A program made the position numbers and the translations under genes. From Candidatus Moraniibacteriota bacterium (lineage in GTDB: Bacteria; Patescibacteriota; Minisyncoccia; Moranbacterales; UBA1568), in assembly GCA_037133435.1 (NCBI GenBank), contig JBAXOD010000002.1, positions 23,545 through 87,544 of the forward strand: DNA of 64,000 bases, written 5' to 3'. Positions 11,771 to 54,785 of the stretch are shown piece by piece. Each line of letters opens with the position of its first letter. Position 1 is the first letter of the stretch. The notes below the pieces were generated by a model. It saw only the letters and a program-made list of their open reading frames with translations, was not told the DNA's origin and did not search any database.

Positions 11771-11989
11771 AGTATTCTTGATTAATTATCGGTCATGATA
11801 CGAATTACATTTCCGATCGACGGGTACGTCTTCCTTTTTCGCGGTGCGCCGATACCGAAACAGCTCGGCCCGGAACACGGCATCTAAAGAAAAAAGTCCG
11901 CTTCAAGCGAACTTCCACACCCGTATCAGATAGTGCCAGTATACTCCCGAACGACCCGGCTGTCAAATGACTATGAGCCTTCACATACC

Positions 11990-15774: not shown

Positions 15775-15784
15775 AGTGTTCGTT

Positions 15785-16240: not shown

Positions 16241-16327
16241 CTATCATCACTTTCGATAGTACTCCGATTTTTGAAAAAAAACAACTCCGCCACACGGCGG
16301 AGTCGTTCCGAAACGAAGGATGTGTAC

Positions 16328-16726
16328 TCAGTACGAGATGCTGTCCGCCGCGTCCGAACCGGTAAGGCTCGCAACCGTATTCACGGCGACATATCCGACG
16401 AGCGCGACGACGATCGCGATGCTCGCGTATACCATCATCTTCTTCGCGCTCTCGGTCTTCGTCTCGTCCCCCGCGGCGATGAGGTACATGACACCCGCTA
16501 TCACGAACGAGATGATGGCGCCGATACCGAGAAGCATCATGAGCCAGTTCATGACGTTGACGAGGATCTGTCCGGCCGAACTTTCCGTCATCCCGGCCGT
16601 GGTGGAAACGGTCTGATACGTGGTACCGGCACTGTCGATGGTCCCGAAACCGAGAGCACCAGTGACCGACGGAACCAAGAGCAGTGCGGCGACCAGGAAT
16701 GCGACCGACCGTTTGGATATCTTCAT
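16328..16726 (-). CDS. VirB2/TrbC-like conjugative pilin family protein (paralog 3)
   Basis: Start MKISKRSVAFLVAALLLVP with GGAGG SD 7 nt upstream; NWLMMLLGIGAIISFVIAGVMYLIAAGDETKTESAKKMMVYASIAIVVALVGY. Confidence 0.55.
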   Translation of the reverse strand: MKISKRSVAFLVAALLLVPSVTGALGFGTIDSAGTTYQTVSTTAGMTESSAGQILVNVMNWLMMLLGIGAIISFVIAGVMYLIAAGDETKTESAKKMMVYASIAIVVALVGYVAVNTVASLTGSDAADSISY

Positions 16727-16849
16727 ATGTTTACCTCCTGTGTTATTTTTTTCCGATGAAACATTCAGTGACACTTCAGATGCTACTCCAATTTTCACAA
16801 AAAAACAACTCCGCCCTGTGGCGGAGCCGTTCTTGTCATCGCGTGACGA

Positions 16850-17260
16850 CTAGTAGCTGATATTGTCCCCAGCGTTCGAACCCGTAAGGTTCGTGATGGT
16901 GTTGACGGCGACATATCCGACGAGTGCCACGACGATCGCGATGATCGCGTAGACCATCATCTTCTTCGCGTTGTCGGTCTTCGCCTCGTCCCCTCCGGCG
17001 ACGAGGTACAGGATACCCGCGATCACGAACGAGATGATGGCGCCGATACCGAGAAGCATCATAAGCCAGTTCATGACGTTGACGAGCATCTGTCCGATGG
17101 AGCTCTTCGTCATTCCGGCGTTCTGAGATACGGTCGTGTACGCCGTACCGCCGGTATCATATTTTCCGAATCCCGAGGTCGGTACGGCCGCGAACACGGC
17201 GACCGGTGCGACCAACGCGGCGACGATCGAGAACATGAGTATCTGTTTCAAAAATTTCAT
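16850..17260 (-). CDS. VirB2/TrbC-like conjugative pilin family protein (paralog 4)
   Basis: Signal peptide MKFLKQILMFSIVAALVAPVAVFA, GGAGG SD; core nearly identical to paralog 3 (NWLMMLLGIGAIISFVIAGILYLVAGGDEAKTDNAKKMMVYAIIAIVVALVGY). Confidence 0.55.
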   Translation of the reverse strand: MKFLKQILMFSIVAALVAPVAVFAAVPTSGFGKYDTGGTAYTTVSQNAGMTKSSIGQMLVNVMNWLMMLLGIGAIISFVIAGILYLVAGGDEAKTDNAKKMMVYAIIAIVVALVGYVAVNTITNLTGSNAGDNISY

Positions 17261-17310
17261 ATGTTCACCTCCTTTCCGTTATTTTTTATTTCCGTTTTCC
17301 ACTGTCCCGA

Positions 17311-17583
17311 TTATACCATAGCCGCCAGCTGTCGGATAGCGATCAGCATCAGGAGGACGACCGAGAGACCGAGGATGGAATAGCCGAGCATCCGTTTCGC
17401 CGATTTCGATTGCTCCTCGTCACCGCCGGCCATCATATACATCACACCGGCCGCGATCAGCGCGACAAGCGCGACGAGACCGAAGAGCGACAACACGAGT
17501 TCGAGGGCACGCATACCGACGAGCTGAAGCGGCGGGGCATCATCTATCACGCCGGACGCTTTCGCTACGGGGATAAGGTTCAT
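17311..17583 (-). CDS. Short VirB2/TrbC-like pilin family protein (paralog 5)
   Basis: 90 aa; LVALVALIAAGVMYMMAGGDEEQSKSAKRMLGYSILGLSVVLLMLIAI retains the AGGDE..K.AK+M motif. Confidence 0.4.
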   Translation of the reverse strand: MNLIPVAKASGVIDDAPPLQLVGMRALELVLSLFGLVALVALIAAGVMYMMAGGDEEQSKSAKRMLGYSILGLSVVLLMLIAIRQLAAMV

Positions 17584-19744: not shown

Positions 19745-19899
19745 GAGCCTATCCGTTAGGAACATACCTCCTGCGCCTAAAATCTTCGGCGTACACGCGC
19801 GTACCCCTTGTCGTCTTATCCAGATAGGGCTCCGCGGGTTACCCGCCTTTCCACTCGAAGCTTATACGGCTCGTGACGGAGACCCTGACGGATAGGCTC
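19745..19899 (-). mobile_element. 155-bp MITE-like element copy 1 (inverted relative to copies 2 and 3)
   Basis: Terminal inverted repeats gagcctatccgttagg / cctgacggataggctc; >85% identical to 22579-22735 and 32646-32800 after reverse complement. Confidence 0.65.
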
Positions 19900-19987
19900 T
19901 TATTCTCCTCCGAGTGTTCCCTGTTTACTGTTTACTGTTTACTGTTCATTGTTGTCAGTTGTCAGTGGTTAGTTATCAATCAAATAC

Positions 19988-20049
19988 GGAGAGATGACCG
20001 AGTGGTTGAAGGTACCGCTCTCGAAAAGCGGCAGGCCCGAAAGGGCCTC
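19988..20049 (+). pseudogene. 62-nt 5' fragment of tRNA-Ser(CGA) (acceptor through first half of T-loop), exact duplicate of 20391-20452
   Basis: ggagagatgaccgagtggttgaaggtaccgctctcgaaaagcggcaggcccgaaagggcctcgagggttcg identical in both copies; diverges inside T-loop. Confidence 0.75.
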
Positions 20050-20122
20050 GAGGGTTCGTCCGGCATACGCCGGACGCCCCGCGCATGCGGGGCGAATCCC
20101 ACATTTAAGGAGAAGGCTGCAT

Positions 20123-20386
20123 ATGTTCTATGTCTATATCCTCAGAAGCAAGAAAGACAATGACTTCTATATCGGGTCAACCGGAGATTTAAAAAGAAGA
20201 ATGAAAGAACATAATCGCGGAGTAGTGGAATCAACAAGACACAGACGACCTCTTGAACTCCTATGCTATGAAGCGTACAACTATAAAGAAGAAGCTCAAG
20301 CGAGAGAGCGTTTTCTAAAAAGCAGTGACGGAAAGAAAGATTTACGGAAACGATTGACTCGCAGTTTGGAAAAAAAGGAAAAATAA
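20123..20386 (+). CDS. Small GIY-YIG nuclease-domain protein (YhbQ/UPF0213-like)
   Basis: MFYVYILRSKKDNDFYIGSTGDLKRRMKEHN = GIY-YIG motif; AAGGAG SD 8 nt upstream of ATG at 20123; 87 aa. Confidence 0.75.
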   Translation: MFYVYILRSKKDNDFYIGSTGDLKRRMKEHNRGVVESTRHRRPLELLCYEAYNYKEEAQARERFLKSSDGKKDLRKRLTRSLEKKEK

Positions 20387-20390
20387 GTAC

Positions 20391-20477
20391 GGAGAGATGA
20401 CCGAGTGGTTGAAGGTACCGCTCTCGAAAAGCGGCAGGCCCGAAAGGGCCTCGAGGGTTCGAATCCCTCTCTCTCCT
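20391..20477 (+). tRNA. tRNA-Ser (anticodon CGA)
   Basis: Acceptor GGAGAGA/TCTCTCC, anticodon loop CTCGAAA, long variable arm CAGGCCCGAAAGGGCCTC, T-arm GAGGG-TTCGAAT-CCCTC. Confidence 0.85.
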
Positions 20478-20486
20478 CACTGAAAG

Positions 20487-21030: not shown

Positions 21031-22593
21031 ATGAGGATATCTTTGGAAAGTATTTTCTATCGCGTCATCCTTCCTTTCATGTTTCTTGAGGGATTTCTCC
21101 TGAGAATCGGCAATCTCAGAAAAGGTTTCTGGATCGACGAGTATCTCACCATCGAAACCGCACAGAAACTGACGTTTTTCAATCATACTGACACGGTCGG
21201 TCTCAACCCTTATTACGTCGGCCTCCGTCTGGTCGCATACCTCTTCGGTACCGACGAGACCGCCGTACGGATCATTTCCGTCCTGTTCGGTCTTGCGTCG
21301 GCATTCATCCTTTTCCTGATCGGAAAAAAATATTTTCACGAACGCGTCGGGCTCATCTCATCCTGTATCTTTCTGCTTACTCCCTTAGGCATATCGCTCG
21401 GTCAGGAAGTACGGCCATATTCCATGCTCCTTTTCCTTTCCCTGTGCCAACTATTTTTCTTTCTGGAAATATTGCAGTCCGTCTCCGAAGGTAAGCGGGT
21501 GAAAAATATCCGATTCATGCACCTCTCCGTCCTTACCCTGCTGATCCTGTTCATCCACCTGTCATCGGTATTATTCCTCGTCTCCGAAATGATCGTCCTT
21601 TCGTTCATAACGATCATCGAAAAACGGTGGCCGACGGACGTCTTCAAATATTATCTCGCTTGTTTGTTCCCGATGTTCGCGTTCTTCGCCTGGTTCTATC
21701 GTGACATCCTTACAAAACTCGGATTTATCGTTTCGGACCGGAATTACATTACCGTCTATTCAAACAGCGGACGCTCTTTCGCCGATGTGATCGTTTTCAT
21801 CCAGAATATCTCAACGGGACTCATCCCGGAGAAGCCAAAGGAGAGCCTGCTGGTATTCCTCCTTGCGCTCATTCTGATCGGAGCATCCATCGGCATTTGC
21901 CATTCTTTCATACGACGCGCCACGATCGTAAACGCCCTCTTTGGAATAACGATTCTCCGGATCTGCATCGGGCTGTCGATGCATGACTTCATTCCGAGAC
22001 ACGCGTTCATATTGACCCCTCTTTTTTCACTCTTTCTCGGAATATCCCTCTACAACCTTTCAAAAGTTCGCAGGGTTCCAAAGGTGGTCATTTTTTGCGT
22101 GTACGGATTCTTCATTCTGTCCCTCGCATATCTTTCACTGATTTCGCAGAAAGCCGAGAAAGCCGATCCGGGGAGACAATGGGGGTCGGTCGCCGATTTC
22201 GTCGAACGAAACGCCGGACCGGAAAAAGCGGTCATCGTGGCAGTCCCCTATCTGAAAGGGATATTCACCCATTATTATCATGGAACGACTCCGATCATCA
22301 CTATGGATGATTACAAGGAAAAATCACGAAATACCCTCATAGAGAACAATGAAATCGGTGTCTCGTTCATAAATCAAGAGCTGACCGATGCGTTGATCGG
22401 CAAGAGTATCGGGTTTCGAGAAATTCTGGTCGTCAAAGACGTTATCGCCTTAGATTTGAGCGATGTGGACAAACGCTTCGATACGGCTTTAGCAAGTCGT
22501 TTCATCCGGATCGATACAACCTGTTTCCCGGCTTCAGCGAAAATCCTGTGCGTCGAACGCTATCGAAGAGCCGACCAAGAGCCTATCCGTTAG
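21031..22593 (+). CDS. GT-C fold membrane glycosyltransferase (ArnT/PMT-like)
   Basis: ~12 TM, GFWIDE in first loop, N-terminal hydrophobic domain followed by C-terminal soluble domain; start at MRISLES. Confidence 0.5.
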   Translation: MRISLESIFYRVILPFMFLEGFLLRIGNLRKGFWIDEYLTIETAQKLTFFNHTDTVGLNPYYVGLRLVAYLFGTDETAVRIISVLFGLASAFILFLIGKKYFHERVGLISSCIFLLTPLGISLGQEVRPYSMLLFLSLCQLFFFLEILQSVSEGKRVKNIRFMHLSVLTLLILFIHLSSVLFLVSEMIVLSFITIIEKRWPTDVFKYYLACLFPMFAFFAWFYRDILTKLGFIVSDRNYITVYSNSGRSFADVIVFIQNISTGLIPEKPKESLLVFLLALILIGASIGICHSFIRRATIVNALFGITILRICIGLSMHDFIPRHAFILTPLFSLFLGISLYNLSKVRRVPKVVIFCVYGFFILSLAYLSLISQKAEKADPGRQWGSVADFVERNAGPEKAVIVAVPYLKGIFTHYYHGTTPIITMDDYKEKSRNTLIENNEIGVSFINQELTDALIGKSIGFREILVVKDVIALDLSDVDKRFDTALASRFIRIDTTCFPASAKILCVERYRRADQEPIR

Positions 22594-22735
22594 GGTCTCC
22601 GTCACGAGCCGTACGATCTTCGAGCGGAAAGGCGGGTAACCAGCGGATCCCTCTCCGTAGATACGGCGACAAGGGGTACGCGCGTGTACGCCGAAGATCA
22701 TAGGCGCAGGAGGTATGTTCCTAACGGATAGGCTC
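22579..22735 (+). mobile_element. 155-bp MITE-like element copy 2
   Basis: gagcctatccgttagg...cctaacggataggctc; overlaps stop codon of upstream gene. Confidence 0.65.
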
Positions 22736-22940
22736 TCAGTAGATGATAACAAACCCCCGAGTCAATCGATTCGCGATCCATCTTGTCACTCCGGTTTCAT
22801 TCCGATATCGTGATTGTCTGCGTCGAGAGGCTCCGGGAGCATTCCATGGTATCATCAGTGGGATAGGAATACCGGTAACCGGATATCGGAACAAGACAAA
22901 AAATCATATACCGAACGGCAAAAAACCACAGACAGAACCT

Positions 22941-30865: not shown

Positions 30866-32640
30866 ACGAGAACGAATCGGAAACCGTACCGAAAGTGGCC
30901 ATTCCGCCGACCATCACCGTGAAGGCGTTTTCCGATACCCTCGGACTGCCCGTCGCGCAGGTAATGACGGAACTCATGAAAAACGGCATCTTCGCGACCA
31001 TCAACGAGGAGATCGATTTCGATACCGCGAGCATCATCGCGACCGACCTCGGCATGGAGGCGGTCCCGGCCATCGAATCCGGCGATGCTGATAAGCCGCT
31101 CTCGCTCGAGGACATGCTTGACATCTGCGCGAAAGAAAAGAACTCGGACAAGCGCCTCGAGCCACGCGCACCGATCGTCACGATTCTCGGACATGTCGAC
31201 CACGGCAAGACCACGCTCCTCGACACGATCCGCAAGGCGAGCGTCGCGACCGGGGAAGCGGGTGGCATCACACAACATCTCGGCACCTATCAGGTCAAGA
31301 AGCGCGGCAAACTCATCACGTTCATCGACACCCCCGGACACGAGGCGTTTTCCGCGATGCGCAAGCGCGGCGTCTCTATCGCCGACATCGCCATCCTCGT
31401 CGTCGCGGCCGATGACGGCGTCCAGAAGCAGACCAAGGAAGTCATCACGTACCTCAAGGAGCGCGGACTCCCCATCATCGTGGCCATCAACAAGATCGAC
31501 AAGCCGGACGCGAATATCATGCGCATCAAGCAGGATCTTGCCGAGAATGACATCCTCATCGAAGAATGGGGCGGGAAAATCCTGTGCTCCGAGATCAGCG
31601 CGAAACAGAACGTCGGCATCGATTCACTGCTCGAAAACATCCTCCTCGTCAACGAGGTGGAAGAATTTTCCGCCGACGCGAAGCGCAGCGGACTCGCGGT
31701 CATCCTCGAATCGCACCTCGACAAGCAGAAGGGCCCAGTCGCCACGAGCCTGGTCCGGACCGGCACCCTCAAGGTCGGTCAGGACGTGATCGCCGGATCG
31801 GTCTTCGGCCGTATCCGTCATATGGAAAACTACGCCGGCAAGACCGTCGAATCCGCCGGTCCCTCGACGCCGGTCATCATCTACGGCTTCAGCGATACTC
31901 CGAAGGTGAACGACGTCGTTTCGGTCGCCAGCGGCAAGGCATCGGCACGGGTCCGTTCCGAACGGGCCCAGACGACCGCTAAGACCCTTATCAGGGCCAA
32001 ATCCGAGGAAGAAGGTGTCGAAGGTCCGAAGCGGCTTTCCTTCGTCCTCAAGGCGGATGTGGAAGGCTCGCTCGAGGCGATCGAACAGATTCTCGGTACC
32101 ATCGTCCACGACGAAGTCGCGCTCGAGGAGATTTCCTCCGGGGTCGGAGCCATCACCGAATCCGACGTGAAGATGGCGGAGAGCGCGGGGGCGGTCATCT
32201 TCGGATTCAACGTGGAACCGACCGCGGTCGCCCGACGCATGGCCGAAAAGAGCGGCACGGCGATCGAGAGCTTCGGAATCATTTATAAACTCGTCGACCG
32301 GGCGAAGGAGCGGCTGTCCGAGTTATTGCCGCCGGAAACGATACGCACCGATCTCGGCACCCTGTCCGTCCTCGCGGTCTTCAAGACCGGCAAACGCGAC
32401 CAGATCGTCGGCGGACGCGTCGGTAATGGAAAACTCTTCAAAGGTACGAAAGTCGACATCCGCCGCAAGGACGAGGTCGTCGGCACCGGTATCATCGTCA
32501 ATCTCCAGCAGAACAAACAGAACGTCGAGGAGGTCGGGCAGGGAAACGAATGTGGCGTCGTCTTCGAAGGCAATGCGAAAATCGCGGATGGGGATACGCT
32601 TCTCGTCTATCGCGAGGAAACGAAGCGCCGGACGCTCTAG
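30862..32640 (+). CDS. infB: Translation initiation factor IF-2 (short form)
   Basis: [12 protein letters not shown] (G1), DTPGHEAF (G3), NKID (G4), C-terminal beta-barrels; 592 aa. Confidence 0.9.
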
Positions 32641-32645
32641 ACTTA

Positions 32646-32800
32646 GAGCCTATCCGTCAGGGTCTCCGTCACGAGCCGTACGAGCTTCGAGCGAAAAGGC
32701 GGGTAACTTGCGGAGCCCTATCGAGATAAGGCGACAAGGGGTACGCGCGTGTACGCCGAAGATCATAGGCGCAGGAGGTATGTTCCTAACGGATAGGCTC
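32646..32800 (+). mobile_element. 155-bp MITE-like element copy 3
   Basis: gagcctatccgtcagg...cctaacggataggctc immediately after infB stop. Confidence 0.65.
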
Positions 32801-33015
32801 TTACATATAAGCATACCACGATTGCTTCTCGGTCAATTTTGCATTTTTTTCTGACACATGCTATCTGCACCGTATAATCCGTGGTAAATTGTTAGTTGTA
32901 CGCTTCTTGTTCAATGCTTTCTTCCCGCTCGTCCTTGCAAGCGGGTCCGCGCACGGAGATGTCGCGGATTATCTGTTGTAGGTTATCAGTGGTAAGTCGT
33001 TAGTCTTGCTTTCCT

Positions 33016-34530
33016 ATGGATTCTTCCGTCATCCCCGCACCGGTCCTCTCCGTCCTCGATGCCCTGAAATATGCCGGGTATCAGGGGCAGATCGTCGGCG
33101 GATGCGCGCGCGACCTGTTTCTCGGACGCGAACCGAAGGACTGGGATATCACGACCGATGCGAAACCGGAGGAGACGCTTTCCGTCTTCCCGGACAGTTT
33201 CTATGAGAACGATTTCGGGACGGTCGGCGTAAAAGTCGAGCCGTTCCACAAGGAAGGCCGTCCGGACCGCGAACACGACGTGATAGAAGTGACGACCTAT
33301 CGGACCGAATCCGGCTATTCGGACATGCGTCGGCCTGATCAGGTCGAATTCGTCCTATCGCTGTCCGAAGACCTTTCCCGGCGCGATTTCACGATGAACG
33401 CGATCGCGCTTCAGGTCAACGATCCGTCCCCGTCGCATACGGACCGGACCATCGACGTCATCGATCCGTTCCATGGCCAGGAAGACATCAACCGAAAGAT
33501 CATCCGGACGGTCGGCAACGCCGAACAACGCTTCGGCGAGGATGCACTGCGCATGATGCGGGCGATACGTTTCTCCTCCGAACTGGGCTCACCGGCTACG
33601 GAAGAAAGCGGATGGACGATCGAGGAACCGACGCTTGCGGCGATAGGAAAACACTCGGAACTGATCGCTCACGTCTCGCAGGAACGCATCCGCGACGAAT
33701 TATCGCGGATTATCCTCTCGGAGCGTCCGGCTGAAGGGGTCGAGCTGCTCCGGAGTGTCGGGTTGCTGAGATATATCATTCCAGAACTCGAGGAAGGCGT
33801 GGGTATCGGACAAAACCTCCATCATGCCCTTACCGTATACGAGCACAATCTCGGTGCGCTGCGATACTGCCCGTCGCGCGTGCTCGAAGTCAGGCTTGCG
33901 GCGCTGCTGCACGATGTCGGCAAACCCCGATCGAAGCGCGGCGACGGCTACAAGTCGACGTTCTACAATCACGACCATATCGGGGCCCGGATGACCAAGG
34001 TGATACTCCAAAGGCTTCGCTACCCCGTGGCCGTCATCGACCGGGTCACCCTGCTCGTGGACAACCATCTCTTCTATTACAATGTTGGCGAAGTGACCGA
34101 AGCCTCGGTTCGTCGGCTCATCCGACGCGTCGGCCTCGGGAACATGCGCGATCTTATGTCCGTCCGGATCGCGGATCGGCTCGGGTCGGGCGTCCCCAAA
34201 GCCAAACCGTATAAGTTGCGTCACTTGGAATACATGATCGAGAAGGTCTCAAACGACCCGGTCTCCGTCAAAATGCTCAAGATAAACGGCACGGATCTCA
34301 TGAACGACCTCAAAATGACGCCCGGACCGAAGATCGGCGCCGTGCTCGATGTCCTCCTTTCCGAAGTGATCGAAGATCCGTCACGTAACATCCGCGAGTC
34401 ACTCCTGGTACGCGCGAAAGAACTCTTCGAAGAGGATCTTTCTTCCCTTCGCGACCGCGCGAAAGACGTCATCGAGGAAAAACGCGAACAAGACGATAAG
34501 GGAATCAAAAACCGTCACAAGGTGGCGTAG
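33016..34530 (+). CDS. cca: CCA-adding tRNA nucleotidyltransferase with HD domain
   Basis: GGCARDLFLGREPKDWDITTD Pol-beta NTase motif; LLHDVGKP HD motif; 504 aa. Confidence 0.85.
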   Translation: MDSSVIPAPVLSVLDALKYAGYQGQIVGGCARDLFLGREPKDWDITTDAKPEETLSVFPDSFYENDFGTVGVKVEPFHKEGRPDREHDVIEVTTYRTESGYSDMRRPDQVEFVLSLSEDLSRRDFTMNAIALQVNDPSPSHTDRTIDVIDPFHGQEDINRKIIRTVGNAEQRFGEDALRMMRAIRFSSELGSPATEESGWTIEEPTLAAIGKHSELIAHVSQERIRDELSRIILSERPAEGVELLRSVGLLRYIIPELEEGVGIGQNLHHALTVYEHNLGALRYCPSRVLEVRLAALLHDVGKPRSKRGDGYKSTFYNHDHIGARMTKVILQRLRYPVAVIDRVTLLVDNHLFYYNVGEVTEASVRRLIRRVGLGNMRDLMSVRIADRLGSGVPKAKPYKLRHLEYMIEKVSNDPVSVKMLKINGTDLMNDLKMTPGPKIGAVLDVLLSEVIEDPSRNIRESLLVRAKELFEEDLSSLRDRAKDVIEEKREQDDKGIKNRHKVA

Positions 34531-35382: not shown

Positions 35383-35472
35383 GCCGAGGTGGCGCCCGCC
35401 CGCAACGCTTCGCGTAGCGATGCGGGCAGGAAACTGGTAGACGCACCAGGTTTAGGTCCTGGCGGGAGCAAG
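35383..35472 (+). pseudogene. Partial tRNA-Leu copy: acceptor+D-stem, 36-nt GC hairpin inserted in D-loop, anticodon arm, no T-arm
   Basis: gccgaggtggcg[cccgcccgcaacgcttcgcgtagcgatgcgggcagg]aaactggtagacgcaccaggtttaggtcctggcgggagcaag vs intact copy 12 nt downstream. Confidence 0.7.
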
Positions 35473-39076: not shown

Positions 39077-40147
39077 TTAGGCGTTCTTGATCTTGTTCTT
39101 GATGCGACTCAGAAGAAACGCGACCAGAAATGACTGAAGCGGGAAGACGGCGATGATCGGGATGCTCTCGATTACCGCCACGATCACAATGACACCGATA
39201 CGCTTTGCTAGTAATATGATTTTCTCTTTCGGCGGCAGTTTCCTCGTATTCTTGTCAAGTGCTATGATGATGATCTGTCCGATAACGAACGGTCCCGAAA
39301 TGAGTGTGGTCACCCCCGGAAGAAAGAAATCGAAAAAATCGGTCAGGTCGTCGATGCCGCCGAGCATGTAAATCAATAATTTTGATGTAAACGACAAATC
39401 TGAGGCGTTCGGATCATGCTGTGCTGTTCCACTCCCCTGCACGGTCACGTTCCCCGTCTGCCCCGATTTGCGTTGCTCTTCCCAGGACGGGTATCGGGTC
39501 GGCCGTCCTCCCATGGCTTCCGATGATTCTTCCGCATCCTCCTCATCCGATTCAGTAGTCACCGAATTCGGAACAAAACGCAGATTATTTGGAGATTCGC
39601 TATATCGGACATTCCGCTGTTTCGGCCGGGCTGTCGTCGATGCGGCTGGTTTCCCCGAAGCGGAGTTCGAGAGCTGCAAACTGTAATTCTCACGTGCTCG
39701 TTTCGTTTCGATCGCAAGCCGTGTCGCGTCCGGATTTCGATCTTGTTCGAGTTCAAGCTCATCCCTTAAAAGTGCACCAAAAGATTGTACATTCATATTC
39801 TCAGGCCGGTTCGCAGTCAATTCCGCGGGCGTTTCCGAAGTGGCGATACGGCGCTGCAGACGAGTACTCTCAGTCGCTCGTTTCTCGAGCATCGCACGCT
39901 GAACAGCGGCTGATTCCCGGTCACTGTCGATCGCGTCCGCTGTCAAAAGAGCGTCGGCCGCTACGACCGTACGGGCGATATTTTGTCGTGCTCCCGCGGC
40001 CTCATTCATCCTCCGTGCACGCAGGCCCGCAAGCATGCCCGACATACGTGCCGCATTCCGTGCGTTAGGCGAAATCACGGTCCGATCCGAAGCCGGCAAG
40101 CGGGCACGACCGTCGGGAGCTCCTGTATTTGGATTCGAAGTACTCAT
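39077..40147 (-). CDS. Hypothetical protein: ~260-aa disordered polar N-region plus C-terminal TM pair
   Basis: 356-aa ORF, C-terminal FVIGQIIIIAL and IGVIVIVAVIESIPIIAVF helices. Confidence 0.45.
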   Translation of the reverse strand: MSTSNPNTGAPDGRARLPASDRTVISPNARNAARMSGMLAGLRARRMNEAAGARQNIARTVVAADALLTADAIDSDRESAAVQRAMLEKRATESTRLQRRIATSETPAELTANRPENMNVQSFGALLRDELELEQDRNPDATRLAIETKRARENYSLQLSNSASGKPAASTTARPKQRNVRYSESPNNLRFVPNSVTTESDEEDAEESSEAMGGRPTRYPSWEEQRKSGQTGNVTVQGSGTAQHDPNASDLSFTSKLLIYMLGGIDDLTDFFDFFLPGVTTLISGPFVIGQIIIIALDKNTRKLPPKEKIILLAKRIGVIVIVAVIESIPIIAVFPLQSFLVAFLLSRIKNKIKNA

Positions 40148-40229
40148 AGGTACTGACTACGTATCACGAATCATTATGAGAGAGACCGAAAGGAGCGATA
40201 GAATCAAAAAGACGACCTCCCGTGACGGA

Positions 40230-40385
40230 AGACCGTCTTTACGCAGGTTCAGGGTTGTACCCTGAACCACGGGGTTTACAACCGATACCGAAGCTCTGAT
40301 ATGGAGAACCGACCTCCGGTAAGGTTCTGACACAGGGAGAGAAACATTTCGGAGCAGGGTACAACATTGCTCCAGTAAAGAATCG
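40230..40385 (+). repeat. Hairpin repeat family copy b: cgcaggttcagggttgtaccctgaaccac and ggagcagggtacaacattgctcc
   Basis: Matches 12071-12093 (inverted) and 49647-49673 / 49821-49843. Confidence 0.6.
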
Positions 40386-40432: not shown

Positions 40433-42769
40433 TCAATATCCCGCACCCGCGTCGAAATCGCGTTTGGCCTGTTCGATCTCAAGCAACTGCCGCGGATCCG
40501 TCGTAATGACCTGATCCTCGCTGTACGAAGCGATAACCTTGATCGCGACGTGTTTCGTCCCGGCGAAAAAGATTCCCTCTCCCACGTTCGATTCGAGCAA
40601 CAAGAACTTCTCGTGATCGGTCAGGTAAAAGAGATCCGCAATGAGATCAATCGAAGCCGGCGACTGTTTGAGGAGAAGCTGGATAGAGGAGTTTGTGACG
40701 ATCGGTTTACCGTAGCGTGACGCCATGAAATCGCCCACGTCCTGGGTGATGGTCGTCAGTCCCGCGAAGTACTTGCGGCACCGTTTCGCGATACCGAACA
40801 TGAATGCGGCGGCATCCTCGTTTTGCATCATGATCCACGCCTCGTCCACGACGATCAGCCGCTGTTTCATTTCCACGCGGATCTCGTTCCAGATGTACTG
40901 CAAGATGACGTACATCGCGATCGGCCGAAGCTCGCTCTCGAGGTCCCGGATATTGAAGACGATCATCTGCCGATTCAACGACACGTTTGTCTGGTGATTG
41001 AGGAACCCGCTGAAGACGCCCTCGGTATACTGTTCGAGCCGCGCCGCGAGCGATTCGGCACCTTCGACATTGCGAAGCACGGCATAGAGATCCGTCATGG
41101 TCGGGAACGATGCCGCGTCGAGAGAGCGGAAGTCCGACGATTCGGTGATGTCGCGGATGGCATATGTCTCGCGGATCGCACGGTCAAGGACGGAGTCCTC
41201 TTCCGGCGTCACCGCGCCGAGCATGAGGTGTAGCAATCCGATCAGGTTCGCGACATGACTGCGGAACACGCCCTGTTCATCTTCCGTCGCGGCGATTTTC
41301 GGAAGGTCGAACGGGTTCAGATGCGCGTCGGAGGCGAGCGAAATGTCGAGGAACGTCCCGCCGACCGTGTCGCACAGGTGCTTGTATTCCTGTTCCGGAT
41401 CGATGATGACGACGCTCGTCCCGAACATCATGGAACGCAGTATCTCGAGTTTGATGGTATAGCTTTTTCCGGCGCCGGATTTCGCGAAGACGACCATGTT
41501 GGCGTTTTCCATGCGGAACCGGTCGAACAGGACGAGCGAATTGTTGTGCCGGTTGATCCCGTAGAGTATCCCCTCGTTCGAGGACAAATCGGAAGACACG
41601 AACGGAAACGTGGTGGACAAGGGCGAGGTGTTCAGATTGTTCGCGATATCGAGCAGGTCCATGCCCAAAGGCCTCGTGGAGATGAATCCCTGATCCATCC
41701 GCAGCACGGCCTGCTTCGTGAAGACGAGCTGCGCCTCGAGTATGGACTCGATGTTTCTGGAAATGTCGTTGAGTGCCTTCTCATCGGCCGCATAGACGGT
41801 CATGTAGAGTCCGAATCGGAAGAATTTCTCCGTCCCCTGCTGCAGACGGTCGCGAAGATCCTGGATGTTCTCGAGTGCGGCTTCGAGCATAGGATCGCGG
41901 ACCTTGCCGCCTTCGGCCTCGATGCCGATCTGCGAACGGACGTGCGTCTCGGACGCACGCAACTCACGCATGATCTCACGCGTGTCGACCGGATGAATAA
42001 GGAAGCCGACGTCCATCGGGGCGTCGATATTCACGATCGGGGAAAACCAGTTCGTCCCGAGGTATTTCGGATACGCGATGACGAAATGCGTCCGCGCGAA
42101 CACGCTGCCGACATGGAAAAAGCTCGGTGACATGCGTATCGCCGGCGGTGCGATGAGATCCTTGAGACTCGCGACGCCCTTGCGATAGAGCTCTTCCGAT
42201 TCGGTGCTGCCATGTGAAGAAAATACGGAGGTCAAAAATCCGCCCTTGCCGCCGCCGGCCGATTTCTGCTTGGAGGAAGGCCGTTCGACCTCCGCCGAAT
42301 ACGGAATGACCTCCTCCTCGAAACCGGACGGGCGTGAGTAAGGTGCGGCTGATTCCGAACCAGGTGCGGGAATACGGGACGATTCCGCTTCGACAGCGGA
42401 AGGAAGAGGCTCTACCGTAACCGGCGGCGTATCAAAAGAACGCGCCGGCGCGGGTTCGGATGATGCCGGTTGCGACGACCACGAGGCATACGCGGGCGCC
42501 GCCGATTCCGCCACCGGGATCGGTGCGGGTACCGGAGTCGGTTGCACTGCGGGAGTGGCCGCGACCGGGGGCGTCGACACGACCGGAGCGTCGAAATACT
42601 TCGGCTCCGGCGCGGAAGCGGGAGTCGGGATCGGTGCTGGCGCGGGTGCGGCCGGAACGGGTGCCGGTCCCGAAGGAGATGCTGTACCGCCGCCGGCATC
42701 ACTTAATCCGAGCAGTTCCATGATGAGCGCTTTGCGCTGTTCCGGATCCAATTGTGCTGGTGTAGGCAT
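40433..42769 (-). CDS. VirB4/TrbE/CagE-family T4SS ATPase with ~180-aa Pro/Ala-rich N-terminal extension
   Basis: Walker A VVFAKSGAGKSYT, Walker B LIVVDEAW, CagE_TrbE_VirB N-domain block FHVGSVFARTHFVIAYPKYLGTNWFSPIVNIDAPMDVGFLIHP. Confidence 0.8.
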   Translation of the reverse strand: MPTPAQLDPEQRKALIMELLGLSDAGGGTASPSGPAPVPAAPAPAPIPTPASAPEPKYFDAPVVSTPPVAATPAVQPTPVPAPIPVAESAAPAYASWSSQPASSEPAPARSFDTPPVTVEPLPSAVEAESSRIPAPGSESAAPYSRPSGFEEEVIPYSAEVERPSSKQKSAGGGKGGFLTSVFSSHGSTESEELYRKGVASLKDLIAPPAIRMSPSFFHVGSVFARTHFVIAYPKYLGTNWFSPIVNIDAPMDVGFLIHPVDTREIMRELRASETHVRSQIGIEAEGGKVRDPMLEAALENIQDLRDRLQQGTEKFFRFGLYMTVYAADEKALNDISRNIESILEAQLVFTKQAVLRMDQGFISTRPLGMDLLDIANNLNTSPLSTTFPFVSSDLSSNEGILYGINRHNNSLVLFDRFRMENANMVVFAKSGAGKSYTIKLEILRSMMFGTSVVIIDPEQEYKHLCDTVGGTFLDISLASDAHLNPFDLPKIAATEDEQGVFRSHVANLIGLLHLMLGAVTPEEDSVLDRAIRETYAIRDITESSDFRSLDAASFPTMTDLYAVLRNVEGAESLAARLEQYTEGVFSGFLNHQTNVSLNRQMIVFNIRDLESELRPIAMYVILQYIWNEIRVEMKQRLIVVDEAWIMMQNEDAAAFMFGIAKRCRKYFAGLTTITQDVGDFMASRYGKPIVTNSSIQLLLKQSPASIDLIADLFYLTDHEKFLLLESNVGEGIFFAGTKHVAIKVIASYSEDQVITTDPRQLLEIEQAKRDFDAGAGY

Positions 42770-43946: not shown

Positions 43947-45812
43947 TCAGTTCCGAAGATCCACGACGCGACCCGGGTCGTCGTCTTCCGAAGCCACGAA
44001 CCCGTCTTCCGTATCGACGGGACGGATATAGTACGGGCCCGCTTTCGGTGCCTGATTCGGACGCGGGACATCCTGCGGCATCTGCCGATCCGATACGGGG
44101 GTCCGGACGATTTCGGTGTGGTACGGCTCGGTCGCTCGACCCTGCGCGAATGACGTCGCGGACGGCAACGCCACGGGCCGGGTCGTTTCGATGTCGTCAC
44201 GGATGGAATTTCGTTTCGAATAATCGATTTCGCCAGGCAACGAATGACCGGAAGAAAACGACATGCCGCCACTCCTTTCGGACACATGCGGGGAATGCGT
44301 GATCGGTTCCACGACATCATCATGCGCGCGCGTACCGATCGGAGCAGGAGCGGATGTGTCGATATCCTTGGATGCGACATCGCGGATACCGTCATTTTTC
44401 CAAAATGCCACCTTCGACGTATCCGGTTGGAAGGACGGGATCGCACCGGACGCGCGGAGCGGTGCGGGCTGCACCGGAGCGGGACCGATCGGCAGATCGC
44501 GCGGAGGGGCGGCAGTCGGTCGAGGTGCAAGAGCCGGTGCTACCGGTCGTGCGGGTGACACATATGGCCGTGAGACCGGCTCCTGAACAGGTTCCACATA
44601 TCGCGGAGCGGGAGCCTGTGAAGGCGGCGCGACCGGTCGTGCAGGCGGTACATACGGAGCCGGTGCCGGTGCTTGAATGGGTTCGGCAGAGTGTAACGCC
44701 GATGCAAAATGAGGTGCCTCGGTCTGAAATTCTTGATTCGATATATGAACCAATTCTTCTTTGGGTATCACATATTGAGATGCGGAAGCCGGAGCTGACG
44801 AGGGTAGCGAAACCGGTCGTACCGGTGGTACATACGGAGCCGGAGCTTGTGGCACTTGATACTGCGCGGGAGTTGGTTCCACATATCGCGACGCGGGAGC
44901 TGGCGCTGCAGTATGTTGTGCAGGCGTCGGCGGGACCGGTCGTGCCGGAGGCACGTACGGACGCGGTTCCGGTCTTTGTGCGACTGCTGCCGGTCGCGCT
45001 GGAAGCGATGCCGTACCGCGCCCGGACTCTTGGAAGGTCGGGAAGACGATCTCCATGGTTTCTGTATCGACGTCGAGCGCGACATTGTCCTCCACGGACC
45101 GGACAATCAGGTTGATCCTCTCCCGTTCTTCCGAAGAGAGTTTCTTGCCGTTCTCCGAATCGAACAGGAATTTGGCGCGAAGCATCGGATCGTGATATCC
45201 CACGCCGAGATCGTTGCGATACGCGCGGATCCAATTACCCAAACTCGGCCGGACCGTTTCCAACTGACCGTGGATATGGATACGCTCCGTCGAGAGTATC
45301 TGTTCGCTGAGTTTCGGATACTGGCTCACCGCCTGTAAAAGCGGGAGTGATACGGTCGCCCGCAGTGCCGCCTCGGACAGGTCTTCATCCTCGTCCTCAT
45401 CCTTTTCCAGAAGCCACGGTTCGAGTTCGAACACTTTTTTTCGCGCTTCCTCGAGTCCGATGACCGGTGCGGATTTTTTGGTCGCCCATTCGGCCCCGAG
45501 TGCGGCAGCATCGGTGAAGTACTCCGGGAAGCGCGAAAATATCCGCTGATTCACCTCGTATGCGATGCCGTATGCCACGCTCCGCTCGATGCCCGCCTCC
45601 CATCCGACTGTCGCCGGATAATCCGCAAGTGATATCTCGCGCACGAATATTCCCCCAAGCGGCCCGGTCACGGCCGGAATAGCCTCTTCCGGGAGTCCGT
45701 AGAGCATGCAGACCTCCTCGCAGAGGATACGCGGATCGTCCAGCATGAAAAAGTCATGCACAGGCGCCGGCAGCTGCTTCAGTTTTTTGAAAAAATCCTC
45801 CTGCATAATCAC
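43947..45812 (-). CDS. Protein with globular N-domain and Pro-rich repeat C-region (PAPYVPPARPV repeats)
   Basis: 621 aa; at least six YVxPxRPV-type repeats between aa ~290-500. Confidence 0.5.
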   Translation of the reverse strand: MIMQEDFFKKLKQLPAPVHDFFMLDDPRILCEEVCMLYGLPEEAIPAVTGPLGGIFVREISLADYPATVGWEAGIERSVAYGIAYEVNQRIFSRFPEYFTDAAALGAEWATKKSAPVIGLEEARKKVFELEPWLLEKDEDEDEDLSEAALRATVSLPLLQAVSQYPKLSEQILSTERIHIHGQLETVRPSLGNWIRAYRNDLGVGYHDPMLRAKFLFDSENGKKLSSEERERINLIVRSVEDNVALDVDTETMEIVFPTFQESGRGTASLPARPAAVAQRPEPRPYVPPARPVPPTPAQHTAAPAPASRYVEPTPAQYQVPQAPAPYVPPVRPVSLPSSAPASASQYVIPKEELVHISNQEFQTEAPHFASALHSAEPIQAPAPAPYVPPARPVAPPSQAPAPRYVEPVQEPVSRPYVSPARPVAPALAPRPTAAPPRDLPIGPAPVQPAPLRASGAIPSFQPDTSKVAFWKNDGIRDVASKDIDTSAPAPIGTRAHDDVVEPITHSPHVSERSGGMSFSSGHSLPGEIDYSKRNSIRDDIETTRPVALPSATSFAQGRATEPYHTEIVRTPVSDRQMPQDVPRPNQAPKAGPYYIRPVDTEDGFVASEDDDPGRVVDLRN

Positions 45813-48701: not shown

Positions 48702-49277
48702 CTATTGAGGCCGCGCATATGCCAAAATAGTATTATCAAAATAGTATTTCCGTTCCCACTCTTCCTCGACCGGACCATAATCCGTCCCATTTTCACTAAA
48801 TCGAGAAGAACTTCCATCACCGTAAAAAACAATTATCTCTGCTTTTAATTCGACTGGTATCACCAACTGCTCAATAGTATTATTTGTGATTCGGGCAACG
48901 TACCCGTATTTCACTTTCTCTACGCTCGCCCCAGTTGCCTTATGAAGTATATCGCCGATACTTGGATCAGGATTGACGTTATCGTCAGAAAGATATGAGA
49001 CAAGTAATGTGTTTCCGAACAGTTTGTGCGACAACTCAATATATTTCACCCCTCCGGTCAATTTGTTGTTCTTCCCTAAATGAAGCCTTTGTCCAGGAGG
49101 CGCACCACCAGATGAAACCAAAGTCTCTCCCCCCTGGCTCATTCCTGCCGAAACGATTGGCTGCGTGCCGTCATTTGCAGCACTGTTTCCATTGTTTTTA
49201 TTACTACTGCAAGCGCAGAGACCGACTATGCCCAAAAAAAAGGCAACTTGTACTAAATATACTAAAGATTTCTTCAT
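48702..49277 (-). CDS. Putative lipoprotein
   Basis: MKKSLVYLVQVAFFLGIVGLCAC signal/lipobox-like, 191 aa. Confidence 0.5.
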   Translation of the reverse strand: MKKSLVYLVQVAFFLGIVGLCACSSNKNNGNSAANDGTQPIVSAGMSQGGETLVSSGGAPPGQRLHLGKNNKLTGGVKYIELSHKLFGNTLLVSYLSDDNVNPDPSIGDILHKATGASVEKVKYGYVARITNNTIEQLVIPVELKAEIIVFYGDGSSSRFSENGTDYGPVEEEWERKYYFDNTILAYARPQ

Positions 49278-49479: not shown

Positions 49480-49860
49480 AAAATAAATTCTCACTTTTCC
49501 CTTATAAAAGCCACAAACGAAACATTTTCCCGATCAAATTTTCGGCCCGTAAGGTCATTTCGCGGGCTCAGGACTGCGCCCAGCACCGTACGGTACTGAG
49601 TCGTACCTCGTACCAGACGGTACGGGGTTGTACTCTAAACCTTTTCGCAGGTTCAGGGTTATACCCTGAACCACATCGTTTACGGCCGATGATGTGATTT
49701 CGACTTGTCAAACTATACCCTGCCGAGGCTAAGTCTTGGCAAACCAGCCTCCGCTCTAGCTTCGGCTTGGCAAGCCAGACTCCGCTCTAGCTTCGGCCTG
49801 GAAGGGAGAAAGAATGTTTCGAAGCAGGGTGCAACCCTGCTCCTGCAATAAAATTACATC
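49480..49860 (+). repeat. Hairpin repeat family copy c plus internal tandem 30-bp repeat (ggcaaaccagcctccgctctagcttcggc x2)
   Basis: tcccttataaaagccacaaa, cgcaggttcagggttataccctgaaccac, gaagcagggtgcaaccctgctcc. Confidence 0.6.
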
Positions 49861-49937: not shown

Positions 49938-50150
49938 ATCCCCGTTCCCCTTTCAAAATTCGAAATTCAAAATTGCCCTGACCTCGTCCCCAACCCGTTA
50001 ACTCGTTAACCCGTGAACCGAATAACATCCCCTCCCGTTCCCCTTTCAAAATTCGAAATTCAAAATTCAAAATTGCTTTGACCTCGTTCCCAACACGTTA
50101 ACTCGTTAACCCGTGAACCGAATAACATCCCCTCCCGTTCCCGTTGTAAG
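49938..50150 (+). repeat. Two and a fraction tandem ~91-100-bp direct repeats containing ttcaaaattcgaaattcaaaattgc and cgttaactcgttaacccgtgaacc
   Basis: Units 49938-50028 and 50029-50128; third copy of the AT-rich core at 51346-51410 on the other side of the recombinase gene. Confidence 0.7.
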
Positions 50151-50193
50151 TTGTTAGGAGTAAGTTGTGAGTGGTAAGTTGTCAGTCTGTCCC

Positions 50194-51177
50194 TCATTTC
50201 TTCCGTTTCTTCGCATGAAATTCCTCATGAATCTCGCGGAGCCGTTCGTTCGTCACATGGGTATACACCTGGGTAGTGGTAATGGAAGAATGGCCCAGCA
50301 TCGCCTGCACGGAACGGATGTCCGCCCCGTTTTGCAACAGATCGGTCGCGAAGGAGTGCCTCAGCGTGTGTGGATGGACATCCTTGACGATGCCGGCCTT
50401 GGCGGCGTATTTCTTCACCAATCGCTGTATACTCCGTTCGGTAAGCCGCATTCCGGCGTGTCCCTGCCGTTCCTTGGGCGCGCGTTTCGACTTGGGGATG
50501 GCGATAAAGAGCGCCTTGTCCATATCGCTTCGCTTTTCCAAATATCGCATAAGCGAATCTCGTGCGTCATCGGAGAGGAACACTACGCGGAGCTTGGATC
50601 CCTTGCCGCGCACGCTGAATTCACCCTTTTTCAGGTTCACCGAATCGCGATCAAGCGAAGTGAGCTCGGAAACGCGCAATCCTGCGGAAAACAGCAGTTC
50701 GAGGATCGCCCGGTCACGCAGAGCGCGAAGCGACCCGCCCGAAGCGGCAGCAAGGAGCCGTTCCACCTCGTCGAGCTCGAGAAACCCTACCTCGCGCGTC
50801 GGCGCCTTGCCGACCGCGATCTTCTCGGCCGGTACGGTATATTCGTCTTCGCGGGCCAGGTACTTGAGAAACGAACGAAGCACCACGATATGATATGTCT
50901 GGGTCGACTTACGGAGCGTTTCGCCACGCTCGTTGGTGACACGATTAAGCGAGAGACGGTATTCCCGGACACGTTCTGCCGTGATATCCGCCGGACTCTT
51001 GATGCCGCTCATTTCGAAAAACTTCCACAACGAACGCGTATAACTCTCAAGCGTCCGCGGAGAACGGTTCAGCTCTATCTCGAGATGTTCGAGAAACCGC
51101 TTCGCGAGCGCTTCGATCCGAGTCTCTGATTTCGGTGTCCCTGCATTCATATCCATTAAGTATACATGAAAAGTCAC
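50194..51177 (-). CDS. Tyrosine site-specific recombinase (XerC/XerD/phage-integrase family)
   Basis: C-terminal HTLRHSFATDLLQNGADIRSVQAMLGHSSITTTQVYTHV with catalytic R..H..R..Y. Confidence 0.85.
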   Translation of the reverse strand: MTFHVYLMDMNAGTPKSETRIEALAKRFLEHLEIELNRSPRTLESYTRSLWKFFEMSGIKSPADITAERVREYRLSLNRVTNERGETLRKSTQTYHIVVLRSFLKYLAREDEYTVPAEKIAVGKAPTREVGFLELDEVERLLAAASGGSLRALRDRAILELLFSAGLRVSELTSLDRDSVNLKKGEFSVRGKGSKLRVVFLSDDARDSLMRYLEKRSDMDKALFIAIPKSKRAPKERQGHAGMRLTERSIQRLVKKYAAKAGIVKDVHPHTLRHSFATDLLQNGADIRSVQAMLGHSSITTTQVYTHVTNERLREIHEEFHAKKRKK

Positions 51178-51545
51178 TTGTAAGGTGCGAGAAGTCGGTT
51201 CCCCATCCCCGCTCCCCGCTCCCTTCCTGCTCCACTGCCTGAGGGGAGCTCCCGTGGTTTTGCACGGGTGAGGGGTGGGAGAAGTTGCCCATCCTTATCC
51301 CCGCTCCTCACTTCTCACTCCTCATTCCTGTCCCCACTCCCCGCTCCCGTTCCCGTCCCCATTTCAAAATTCGAAATTCAAAATTCAAAATTGCTGAGAC
51401 CCTGTTCCTTATTATCTGCTCAGTGTTAACTGAAGTTATCCCTTATTCAAGGGTAAAGCTACCTATTTCACCATCAATTTTCGTTGACATTGCCCCCCTG
51501 CGGAAGCTATACTCGATTCCATATAACACCTTAGGGCGCCGGCGT

Positions 51546-53766: not shown

Positions 53767-54104
53767 CAATCATTATTTTCAAAAGTTGCGAGTGAGTGCC
53801 CCGTACTTTCTTCCTGTTCCCCTGCCAGAGGAGGATTATCTGACAACAAGGAAAATGATCCGTTGAGTCTTCGAAACTGAAGGTTGGGAGAAATTCCCCG
53901 CATCCTTGACTTGCCACGGCCTCCGCGGCTTCGCAAAGACCGAAGGTATCACGCTCCCGTTCCCTGCTATCTGCTCAATGTTATCTGCTCCCTGATCCCT
54001 GACTCATGTTCCCTGTCTCATGTTATCTGTTCTCTGTTGTCAGTAGTTAGTTGTAAGTTGTCAGTGGTTAGTTGTCAGTTATAGGTTATCAGTCGTCAAT
54101 TCTT

Positions 54105-54785
54105 CTACAACACCTCCACGGTCTTCGGTTTGCGCGCCGTGAAAGAATACAGCCGCGCCGGGCGACTCTGTCCCGACTGGCGGACTTTCCCTGTTTCTTT
54201 GACAAGTTCGATATCCAAGATCTTCTTGCGAAAATTCCGCTTGTCGAGCTCGTGCCCGAGAATGATCTCGTAGACGGTCTGCAGTTCGGTCAGGGTGAAT
54301 TCCTTGGGCAGGAGTCCGTACGCGATATTGGAATATCCGATTTTGCTTCTGAGCCGATCGACGCCGACTGAGACGATCTTCGCGTGATCGAACGCCATCT
54401 TCGGCAAATGCGCCGTATCGTGCCAGGCGATATCGGAATAATATTCGATGGTCGAGGGAAGGCACCGGTCGCTGTTCACGAGCGCGAAATATGCCGTCGA
54501 GACACTCCGCCCACGAACATCACGATCCACACCTCCAAACGTGAATAACTGTTCCAGATAAATATCATCGACACCGGCCTTTTCCGAAAGGATTCGTTCC
54601 GCGGCCTGATCGAGGGATTCATCCATACGGACCAATCCGCCGGGCAACGCCCATTTCCCTTCGTAGGGACCGCTGCCGATCCGGATAAGCAACACCCTGA
54701 GCGCTCCGTCGATGACGGAAAAAATGGCGGTGTCGACCGCGATCAGTATCGACTGGCCGAGTGGCGGCGTGACATTTTTTTTCAT
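54105..54785 (-). CDS. nrtR: NrtR-type Nudix-related transcriptional regulator of NAD metabolism
   Basis: N-terminal degenerate Nudix domain (GKWALPGGLVRMDESLDQAAERILSEKAG) plus C-terminal winged-helix region; flanked by nadM/nadV. Confidence 0.7.
   Translation of the reverse strand: MKKNVTPPLGQSILIAVDTAIFSVIDGALRVLLIRIGSGPYEGKWALPGGLVRMDESLDQAAERILSEKAGVDDIYLEQLFTFGGVDRDVRGRSVSTAYFALVNSDRCLPSTIEYYSDIAWHDTAHLPKMAFDHAKIVSVGVDRLRSKIGYSNIAYGLLPKEFTLTELQTVYEIILGHELDKRNFRKKILDIELVKETGKVRQSGQSRPARLYSFTARKPKTVEVL

Follow-up and report, generated by a model that had tools for sequence, protein, structure and literature searches.

RAYTs are single-domain HUH/tyrosine (Y1) transposases related to the TnpA of IS200, and the genomes of candidate-phyla-radiation (CPR) bacteria, at about 1 Mb, are thought to be poor in repetitive DNA. 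The REP and REPIN families are short palindromes, usually found as inverted pairs, that a single-copy RAYT recognizes as hairpins in single-stranded DNA and mobilizes in trans (PMC3116915, PMC3337134, PMC6006769). Here, we followed up a pair of hairpins beside a VirB4-like gene in a 64-kb window of a Candidatus Moranbacteria chromosome; the window is the whole stretch of DNA that was analyzed, and all coordinates are relative to it. The hairpins, which form the second (b) of three copies in the window, are most likely the two REP units of a non-autonomous REP/REPIN-type doublet of the kind moved by a RAYT, with a foot other than GTAG, and the element is probably parasitic. Locus b does not bound the secretion gene cluster and does not control it: it is no att site, no origin of transfer (oriT) and no cluster-specific regulator.

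The doublet beside VirB4 and its copies in the window

The gene content of the window is that of an ordinary chromosome (trigger factor, NusA, IF-2, RNase Y, iPGM, the CCA-adding enzyme and UvrD), and it also encodes a VirB4/PrgI cluster. An earlier note on this DNA had placed two hairpins in the gap between the 356-aa gene and the VirB4 gene, and there they are: the gap, 285 nt from the VirB4-like stop to the start of the 356-aa gene, houses both, and their sequences, read directly, are GGTTCAGGGTTGTACCCTGAACC at 40246-40268 and GGAGCAGGGTACAACATTGCTCC at 40351-40373. Chance matches to either hairpin pattern with up to 3 mismatches came to 0.00 in 100 shuffles. The features of the cluster and the gap are as follows.

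14569-17583, minus strand: five consecutive T4SS_pilin (PF18895) paralogues, two of them joined by a 300-nt direct repeat, 83% identical
39077-40147, minus strand: gene for a 356-aa membrane protein, downstream of doublet b, in the same conserved cluster as VirB4
40208-40240, minus strand: terminator-like hairpin, 15 pairs then TTTTT, outside the repeat family
40243-40378, plus strand: doublet b, REPIN-like, ~136 nt, both hairpins being its outward-facing ends
40246-40268, no strand assigned: unit A of doublet b, a perfect putative REP hairpin, GGTTCAGGGT-TGT-ACCCTGAACC
40269-40350, plus strand: spacer of doublet b, containing the conserved ACnnnGTTTAC inner flank and, at ~40306-40330, a small hairpin
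40351-40373, no strand assigned: unit B of doublet b, a decayed putative REP hairpin of the GGAGCA type
40433-42769, minus strand: gene for a VirB4/TraC-like ATPase, 778 aa (Pfam P-loop_TraG, 1.4e-28), the gene call being confirmed in contig L201

Doublet b consists of a 5'-GCAG foot, unit A, the spacer, GGGAGAGAAACATTTC, unit B and a decayed CTGC foot (AGTA in this copy), a layout that recurs in copies c and a and in the metagenome contigs L163, L165, L167 and L197. The units are 23 nt long, with a 10-bp stem and a 3-nt loop, and so fall among the short (20-40 nt) hairpin-forming palindromes that REPs are. Folded as DNA, unit A, whose stem is without mismatch, reaches -10.9 kcal/mol (z -5.3), and unit B, with two stem mismatches, -5.7 kcal/mol (z -3.7); undecayed counterparts of unit B, GGAGCAGGGTACAACCCTGCTCC, are present in L163. 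The whole doublet as single-stranded DNA gives -26 kcal/mol (z -4.2). Only tRNAs in the window reach the gathering score in Rfam 15, and an Rfam search across five element-bearing loci at E <= 1 returned no match. The T-run that marks an intrinsic terminator was absent after the stems of units A and B in a terminator scan, which singled out just the separate terminator-like hairpin at 40208-40240. On the minus strand, the order is the VirB4 stop, ~55 nt, unit B, the doublet spacer, unit A, the terminator-like hairpin, ~60 nt and the ATG of the 356-aa gene. Read along the coding strand, the terminator-like hairpin (40240 to 40208) comes after doublet b, and copies a and c have no counterpart of it; in the minus-strand RNA, and not in that of the other strand, three of its pairs are G-U, which agrees with the gene direction. 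Because doublet b lies between the VirB4 stop and this hairpin, it sits in the presumed VirB4 3' untranslated region (UTR) and should be transcribed. The element is presumably transcribed together with VirB4 and would at most have a passive effect on how stable the 3' end of the mRNA is or on how it is processed.

Seven hairpin units occur in the window, at three loci that are all intergenic, bearing out the earlier description of a hairpin repeat family dispersed over copies a, b and c. REPs, for comparison, are extragenic and number from tens to hundreds per genome. Its placement of locus b at the downstream end of the T4SS-like cluster did not hold. The genes after locus b (356, 238 and 955 aa) stay on the same strand, and in L001, from a related genome, homologues of the 356-aa and 955-aa genes follow VirB4 in the same order (37% identity, E 1e-43, and 65% identity, respectively, at the protein level). 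Since the cluster genes continue past locus b and are syntenic in L001, the locus is internal to the cluster. Within the same cluster, a 621-aa ORF at 43947-45812 contains internal repeats of ~55-65 nt at 44525-44974 and is the cluster's most divergent part in a 90%-identical relative. The other two loci hold the following features.

11993-12096, minus strand: doublet a, 104 nt, inverted relative to b and c, with GCAG/CTGC feet at both ends
11996-12018, no strand assigned: second unit of doublet a, decayed, 2 mismatches, -3.8 kcal/mol
12071-12093, no strand assigned: unit A of doublet a, perfect hairpin, -10.8 kcal/mol
49619-49641, no strand assigned: extra unit beside doublet c, strongly degenerate, no longer folding (z 0.0)
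49647-49848, plus strand: doublet c, 202 nt, in direct orientation relative to b
49650-49672, no strand assigned: unit A of doublet c, perfect stem, loop TAT
49735-49801, plus strand: 31-nt tandem repeat, 2.2 copies, in the spacer of doublet c
49821-49843, no strand assigned: unit B of doublet c, GAAGCAGGGTGCAACCCTGCTCC, 1 mismatch

Each doublet contains one intact unit A (GGTTCAGGGT-NNN-ACCCTGAACC) with ~50 nt of flank that is 86-95% identical between copies, and a second unit that faces the opposite way, leaving outward feet 5'-GCAG ... CTGC-3'. Inverted doublets with outward feet, the arrangement by which REPINs are recognized, are formed by a, b and c and likewise in L163, L165, L167, L197, L098, L127, L180 and L118. 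The stems of unit A are flawless in all three copies, and the partner units carry one or two mismatches. The 31-nt unit of the copy c spacer recurs in the spacers of L163 (2 copies). The neighbors of doublet c are genes for a XerC/D-like recombinase (50194-51177, minus) and for a 191-aa protein (48702-49277, minus), and those of doublet a are nusA (10445-11770, minus) and a 309-aa gene (from 12305, plus). The longest ORF at the nusA position, 10424-11785 on the plus strand (453 aa), is spurious; with the real gene on the minus strand, copy a is flanked by divergent genes, a setting that is unusual for REPs and counts against our main interpretation. Pfam and NCBIfam searches returned nothing for the genes adjoining copies a, b and c (191, 309, 356 and 409 aa). 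A 15-nt box, CCCTTATAAAAGCCA, lies near copies a and c (12122-12136 and 49499-49513), with a similar AAATTCTC upstream, and is oriented oppositely with respect to the doublets; as it was found in no other locus searched, we dropped it as part of the element.

The window holds other repeats and structured regions. A region of ~335 nt at 1995-2330 is closed by a ~23-bp helix and folds with -147 kcal/mol (z ~ -8.4) on either strand; pieces of it are 89-93% identical in the otherwise unrelated L163, L165 and L167, and an Rfam search of 1850-2850 (E <= 1) returned nothing relevant. It could be a structured RNA that has not been described before or else another dispersed element. A hairpin inside it, at 2213-2248, resembles one at 35395-35430. 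Runs of 7-nt periodic repeats (GTTGTCA, GTTAGTT and similar) occupy four intergenic places (19901-19981, 32961-33019, 50143-50187 and 53993-54108). A ~165-nt repeat in three copies, 86-99% identical and one of them inverted (19745-19906, 22568-22740 and 32639-32800), brackets a region with tRNA-Ser and two glycosyltransferase-like genes. The 5' 71 nt of the tRNA-Ser(cga) gene at 20391-20478 are duplicated 403 nt upstream with 99% identity (19982-20058 / 20385-20461), in what looks like an integration or rearrangement scar. Just downstream of the recombinase gene beside copy c lies a 100-nt tandem repeat (49939-50138; 1.9 copies, TTCAAAA-rich), and a 58-nt partial copy of it, 90% identical, lies on the other side of that gene at 51351-51408, so that the recombinase gene is flanked by direct repeats.

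The hairpin family in other genomes and its RAYT neighbors

The hairpins belong to a widespread family. The stem pattern GGTTCAGGGTNNNACCCTGAACC, with 20 specified bases, matches at least 120 metagenome contigs; our own estimate from the size of the collection is that a scan of this kind would give ~1 match by chance. The matches listed comprise 99 distinct sites after removal of duplicates, mostly intergenic, and a few of these sites are coincidences in conserved coding sequence or telomere-like repeats. Two of the contigs, L144 (100% identical) and L201 (99.99% identical), come from the genome of the window itself. The element-bearing contigs span 38-59% GC. L163, L165, L167 and L197 (51-56% GC) carry the same GCAG-A-spacer-B-CTGC doublet, some in tandem arrays and some with the 31-nt spacer unit. 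Contigs of 38-48% GC keep unit A, with feet GTT...AAC or GCT...AGC and second units such as GGAGCAGGTTAAAAACCTGCTCC or GGTTCAAAGTTTTACTTTGAACC, and contigs of 54-59% GC keep unit A with the second unit GGGTTCAATTTGCAAAATTGAACCC. The feet in the window read GCAG, those in other lineages GTTG, GCTG or GCGG; the canonical 5' GT[AG]G guide tetranucleotide, a defining feature of classical REPs, is absent from them, which counts against our main interpretation. A search of 2.9 million viral contigs with the hairpin pattern gave 0 matches.

The genes next to the hairpins are mutually unrelated and include those for ThiC, glutamine synthetase, pyruvate kinase, RNase E/G, TsaD, an ABC transporter, an M48 peptidase and a lipase-like surface protein. 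Among the matches listed, the sites with two called neighbors lie between convergent (20/43) or tandem (20/43) genes far more often than between divergent ones (3/43), and placement of this kind is the distribution described for REPs (PMC3733652). On L163, two or more full doublets, additional B-type units and truncated pieces of B are arrayed at 9527-10170, between the gene for a 1045-aa lipase/Ig-domain protein and the next gene, which shows that the elements can accumulate side by side.

The element is absent from the same position in close relatives. A search for VirB4 relatives gave 219 stretches in species-representative genomes, from which 80 loci were kept, most of them labelled Candidatus Moranbacteria/Moraniibacteriota or Patescibacteria; the best VirB4 among them is 76% identical over most of the protein. 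A core motif search of these 80 loci (1.39 Mb) found no family hairpin, and in L001, the closest of them, the gap after VirB4 is 81 nt. Two contigs, L202 and L203, are much closer, with VirB4 proteins 96% identical and flanking-gene DNA 89.8% and 87.6% identical to that of the window. Their alignments to the window break off right at the VirB4 stop on one side and at the following start codon on the other, and the spacer between is 97 nt, with its own terminator hairpin and no family unit, compared with 283 nt in the window; because the spacers are otherwise unalignable, a clean insertion junction, exact boundaries and target duplications are not definable in this comparison. The same two genes therefore occur with the element in the window and without it in L202 and L203, the filled and empty sites expected of a mobile element.

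A Pfam survey of the genes neighboring the hairpins returned Y1_Tnp, the IS200-like transposase, as the commonest family, and in five independent contigs or contig groups the family hairpins directly adjoin a RAYT gene, in four of the five on both sides. Three of the adjoining genes match NCBIfam NF047646, "REP-associated tyrosine transposase," which has a cut-off of 80 bits, with scores of 78.1, 82.4 and 83.3 bits; they come from L092, L157 and L195. The RAYT gene lies between CGGGTTCAGGGTTGTACCCTGAACCCG and CAGGTTCAGGTTCCAAACCTGAACCCG in L092, between family units in L157 and between TGGTTCAAGGTTGTACCTTGAACCA and TGGTTCAGGGTACAACCCTGAACCA in L195, which is the same locus as the near-identical L204-L206; the flank TGGTTCAGGGTACAACCCTGAACCA is identical, as reverse complement, to unit A of the window. 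In L207, a RAYT homologue recognized by sequence similarity lies between GGAGCAAGTTTGTAACTTGCTCC and GAAGCAGGTTACAAACCTGCTCC, which are GGAGCAAGTT-type units of the GGAGCA type, like unit B of the window, and in L181 a family hairpin is 2 nt from the gene for a RAYT homologue that was likewise found by sequence similarity. In an alignment of six RAYT proteins (L195, L157, L092, P0186 from L207, P0190 and P0128), the N and both H of the HUH motif NH(I/L/V)H are invariant and the tyrosine motif Y(I/V)(H/Q)xNP is conserved. The L195 protein has 118 homologues at E <= 1e-10, named by JGI, where they are named, "REP element-mobilizing transposase RayT," and one of them comes from a Candidatus Pacebacteria MAG. 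RAYTs from contigs with the same 20-nt stem are only ~50-57% identical to one another. A PDB sequence search with a RAYT returned no match.

No RAYT gene was found by tblastn in the 64-kb window or in the four closest element-bearing contigs, L163, L165, L167 and L197, a result that counts against our main interpretation. We infer that the window copies were mobilized by a RAYT that these 64 kb do not encode. Such an enzyme would recognize the REPIN as hairpins in single-stranded DNA and would cut and rejoin it in trans, the REPIN being two short outward palindromes, each with a GCAG foot here, separated by a variable spacer. One doublet would have landed in the VirB4-like 3' UTR, ahead of the terminator, and two further doublets elsewhere in the window.

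The stems also show compensatory substitutions between lineages. Among 20 variants of the 23-nt unit, 97% of the cells pair, a percentage that is inflated by the palindrome filter with which the set was collected, as this filter biases it toward pairing. Changes on both sides were seen for 6 of the 10 stem pairs (TT/AA to AG/CT, for example, or GGG/CCC to GGT/ACC, AAG/CTT or ATT/AAT), and these stand despite the filter. The observed value was reached by 0/500 shuffles for four of five measures and by 4/500 for the fifth, and pairing fell to 27-52% when the partner columns were slid. The 3-nt loop is free, with TGT, ACA, TGC, GCA, TAT, TTA and TCA all found. Perfect unit A stems next to flanks that have diverged by 5-14% and partners that are decaying suggest that intact hairpins are favored, and the cause could be either that mobilization is limited to intact copies or that the host uses the units as RNA hairpins.

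Alternative readings of the hairpins

The earlier note saw in the copies possible limits of the cluster that could support excision. If they were att or recombination sites delimiting a mobile T4SS island, recombination between b and c would excise DNA and recombination between a and b would invert it, and in its favor 50 nt of copy b recur in direct orientation in copy c with 86% identity, copy a has the inverted orientation, and a tyrosine recombinase gene adjoins copy c. However, b and c share no identical stretch longer than ~15 nt, the recombinase is XerC/D-like and scores below every specific cut-off, locus b is inside the conserved cluster, and the cluster is present without the hairpins in L202, L203 and the 80 other VirB4 loci. 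Direct repeats at both ends of an element, one of them beside the integrase, and an island missing from empty sites, the signs of an integrative element, were not what we found. The note had itself named many unrelated genomic copies as evidence that would tell against it, and related genomes supply these: among the matches listed, the hairpins lie in ~90 unrelated metagenome contexts beside housekeeping genes, and elsewhere they lie beside RAYT genes. We therefore consider att sites extremely improbable. Equally little speaks for an origin of transfer, in which the hairpins would combine a nick site with the recognition hairpin of a relaxase working with the T4SS-like machinery. HUH relaxases, too, recognize hairpins beside their nick site and the copies lie near T4SS-like genes, but the window ORFs contain no relaxase or coupling-protein domain (Pfam), the hairpins are missing from the 80 VirB4 loci and from the 90%-identical relative, the viral contigs have none, and the enzyme found beside the hairpins elsewhere is a RAYT; an oriT is scarcely credible on these grounds. 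A cis-regulatory RNA or operator specific to the T4SS and pilin genes (a leader, an attenuator or a transcription-factor site) would fit the orientation of the window copies, which is the same relative to the next downstream gene in all three, and the position of the element upstream of a T4SS_pilin gene in the related contig L127. Against this, the orientation to genes varies between lineages and the neighboring genes are unrelated elsewhere, no Rfam match appears even at E = 1, the element is missing from the orthologous loci and its partner units are decaying, all of which makes such a role very unlikely.

A somewhat better, though still unlikely, case can be made for relic REPs that would have been co-opted as 3' UTR elements, the transposase being gone and unit A being kept because its RNA hairpin would protect or process the end of the VirB4 transcript. 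The 20-nt stem of unit A is perfect in all three copies, with flanks 86-95% identical and decayed partners, doublet b should be transcribed from its position between stop codon and terminator, and REPs are known to act as RNA elements (PMC3733652). The same preservation would be expected, however, if only copies with intact hairpins can be mobilized, and copy a lies outside any 3' UTR. Co-option of this kind is possible alongside the REP/REPIN-type doublet that we favor, since the two are compatible. Several other kinds of site were considered and set aside, in each case with a RAYT as the adjacent enzyme elsewhere: integron attC sites, as there are no cassette arrays and no integron integrase; dif sites and DNA uptake sequences, for which we found no support; and the ends of IS200/IS605 elements with a TnpB guide RNA, as there is no TnpB gene. 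Going beyond the REPIN interpretation itself, we speculate that very small CPR/Patescibacteria genomes might maintain a persistent non-GTAG REPIN-RAYT system whose 20-nt stem is near-invariant across lineages of 38-59% GC and half-identical RAYTs, and that, in this genome, its intact units would have been recruited as modules of 3' UTRs or promoter regions at T4SS and pilus loci. We hold this broader proposal to be doubtful; if true, one stem common to distant lineages and half-identical RAYTs would imply an unusually strong constraint by the enzyme or repeated horizontal spread.

Comparison with known elements

The analysis removes a false lead, as the hairpins mark no mobile T4SS island or oriT in this Moranbacteria genome, and it documents a REP/REPIN family and a RAYT clade in CPR bacteria. 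For the REPIN field, it adds a non-GTAG foot, a modular spacer and one stem common to distant lineages, and for annotation, it accounts for contig breaks that recur in these MAGs and for their enlarged intergenic spacers. Our full-text search of the literature found no paper joining RAYT or REPIN with Patescibacteria; a single paper names both repetitive extragenic palindromic sequences and the CPR, one time each.

The modular build recalls the BOX elements of Streptococcus pneumoniae and the Correia elements of Neisseria, in which, as here, an end A is followed by variable internal tandem units (31 nt here) and an inverted end B, and which are likewise intergenic and often co-transcribed. Unlike the present hairpins, BOX and Correia elements are not known to be linked to a Y1 transposase, the sequences are unrelated, and Correia elements have TA target duplications. 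Intrinsic terminators share with units A and B the G+C-rich stem-loop after a stop codon and differ from them in the T-run.

The closest likeness is to the REP/REPIN-RAYT systems (REP/BIME of E. coli with TnpA_REP, the REPINs of Pseudomonas and the class 2 TnpAY1 of Quentin et al. 2018, PMC6006769), which consist, as here, of extragenic palindromes of 23-29 nt in inverted doublets with a spacer. In both, the elements lie mostly after genes, between convergent or tandem ones; a small (~165-aa) HUH/Y1 transposase gene lies directly between two units, in our case in related contigs; the stems carry compensatory changes; and close relatives differ in presence and absence. They differ in the foot, which is GT[AG]G in those systems (PMC6006769, PMC3733652) and G(C/T)NG here, and also in the host, which is a member of the CPR/Patescibacteria, in the one 20-nt stem that extends across 38-59% GC and in that no RAYT was seen in the window. 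The nearest group of enzymes may be the subclass 2.6 TnpAY1, or group 5 RAYTs of Bertels (PMC6006769), whose motifs NH[LIV]H ... YIH[QN]NP match those found here; because it draws on motifs and foot and not on a phylogeny, this assignment is a resemblance only. Subclass 2.6 is associated with "atypical secondary structures" that have genomic copies elsewhere (PMC6006769), and the flanking hairpins described here are likewise without a GTAG guide. By contrast, that subclass is described mainly from Bacteroidetes (PMC6006769), and the tryptophan motif of our proteins is FW instead of WQ. The element is thus of a known kind, and what is new is the unusual host group and the non-canonical foot.
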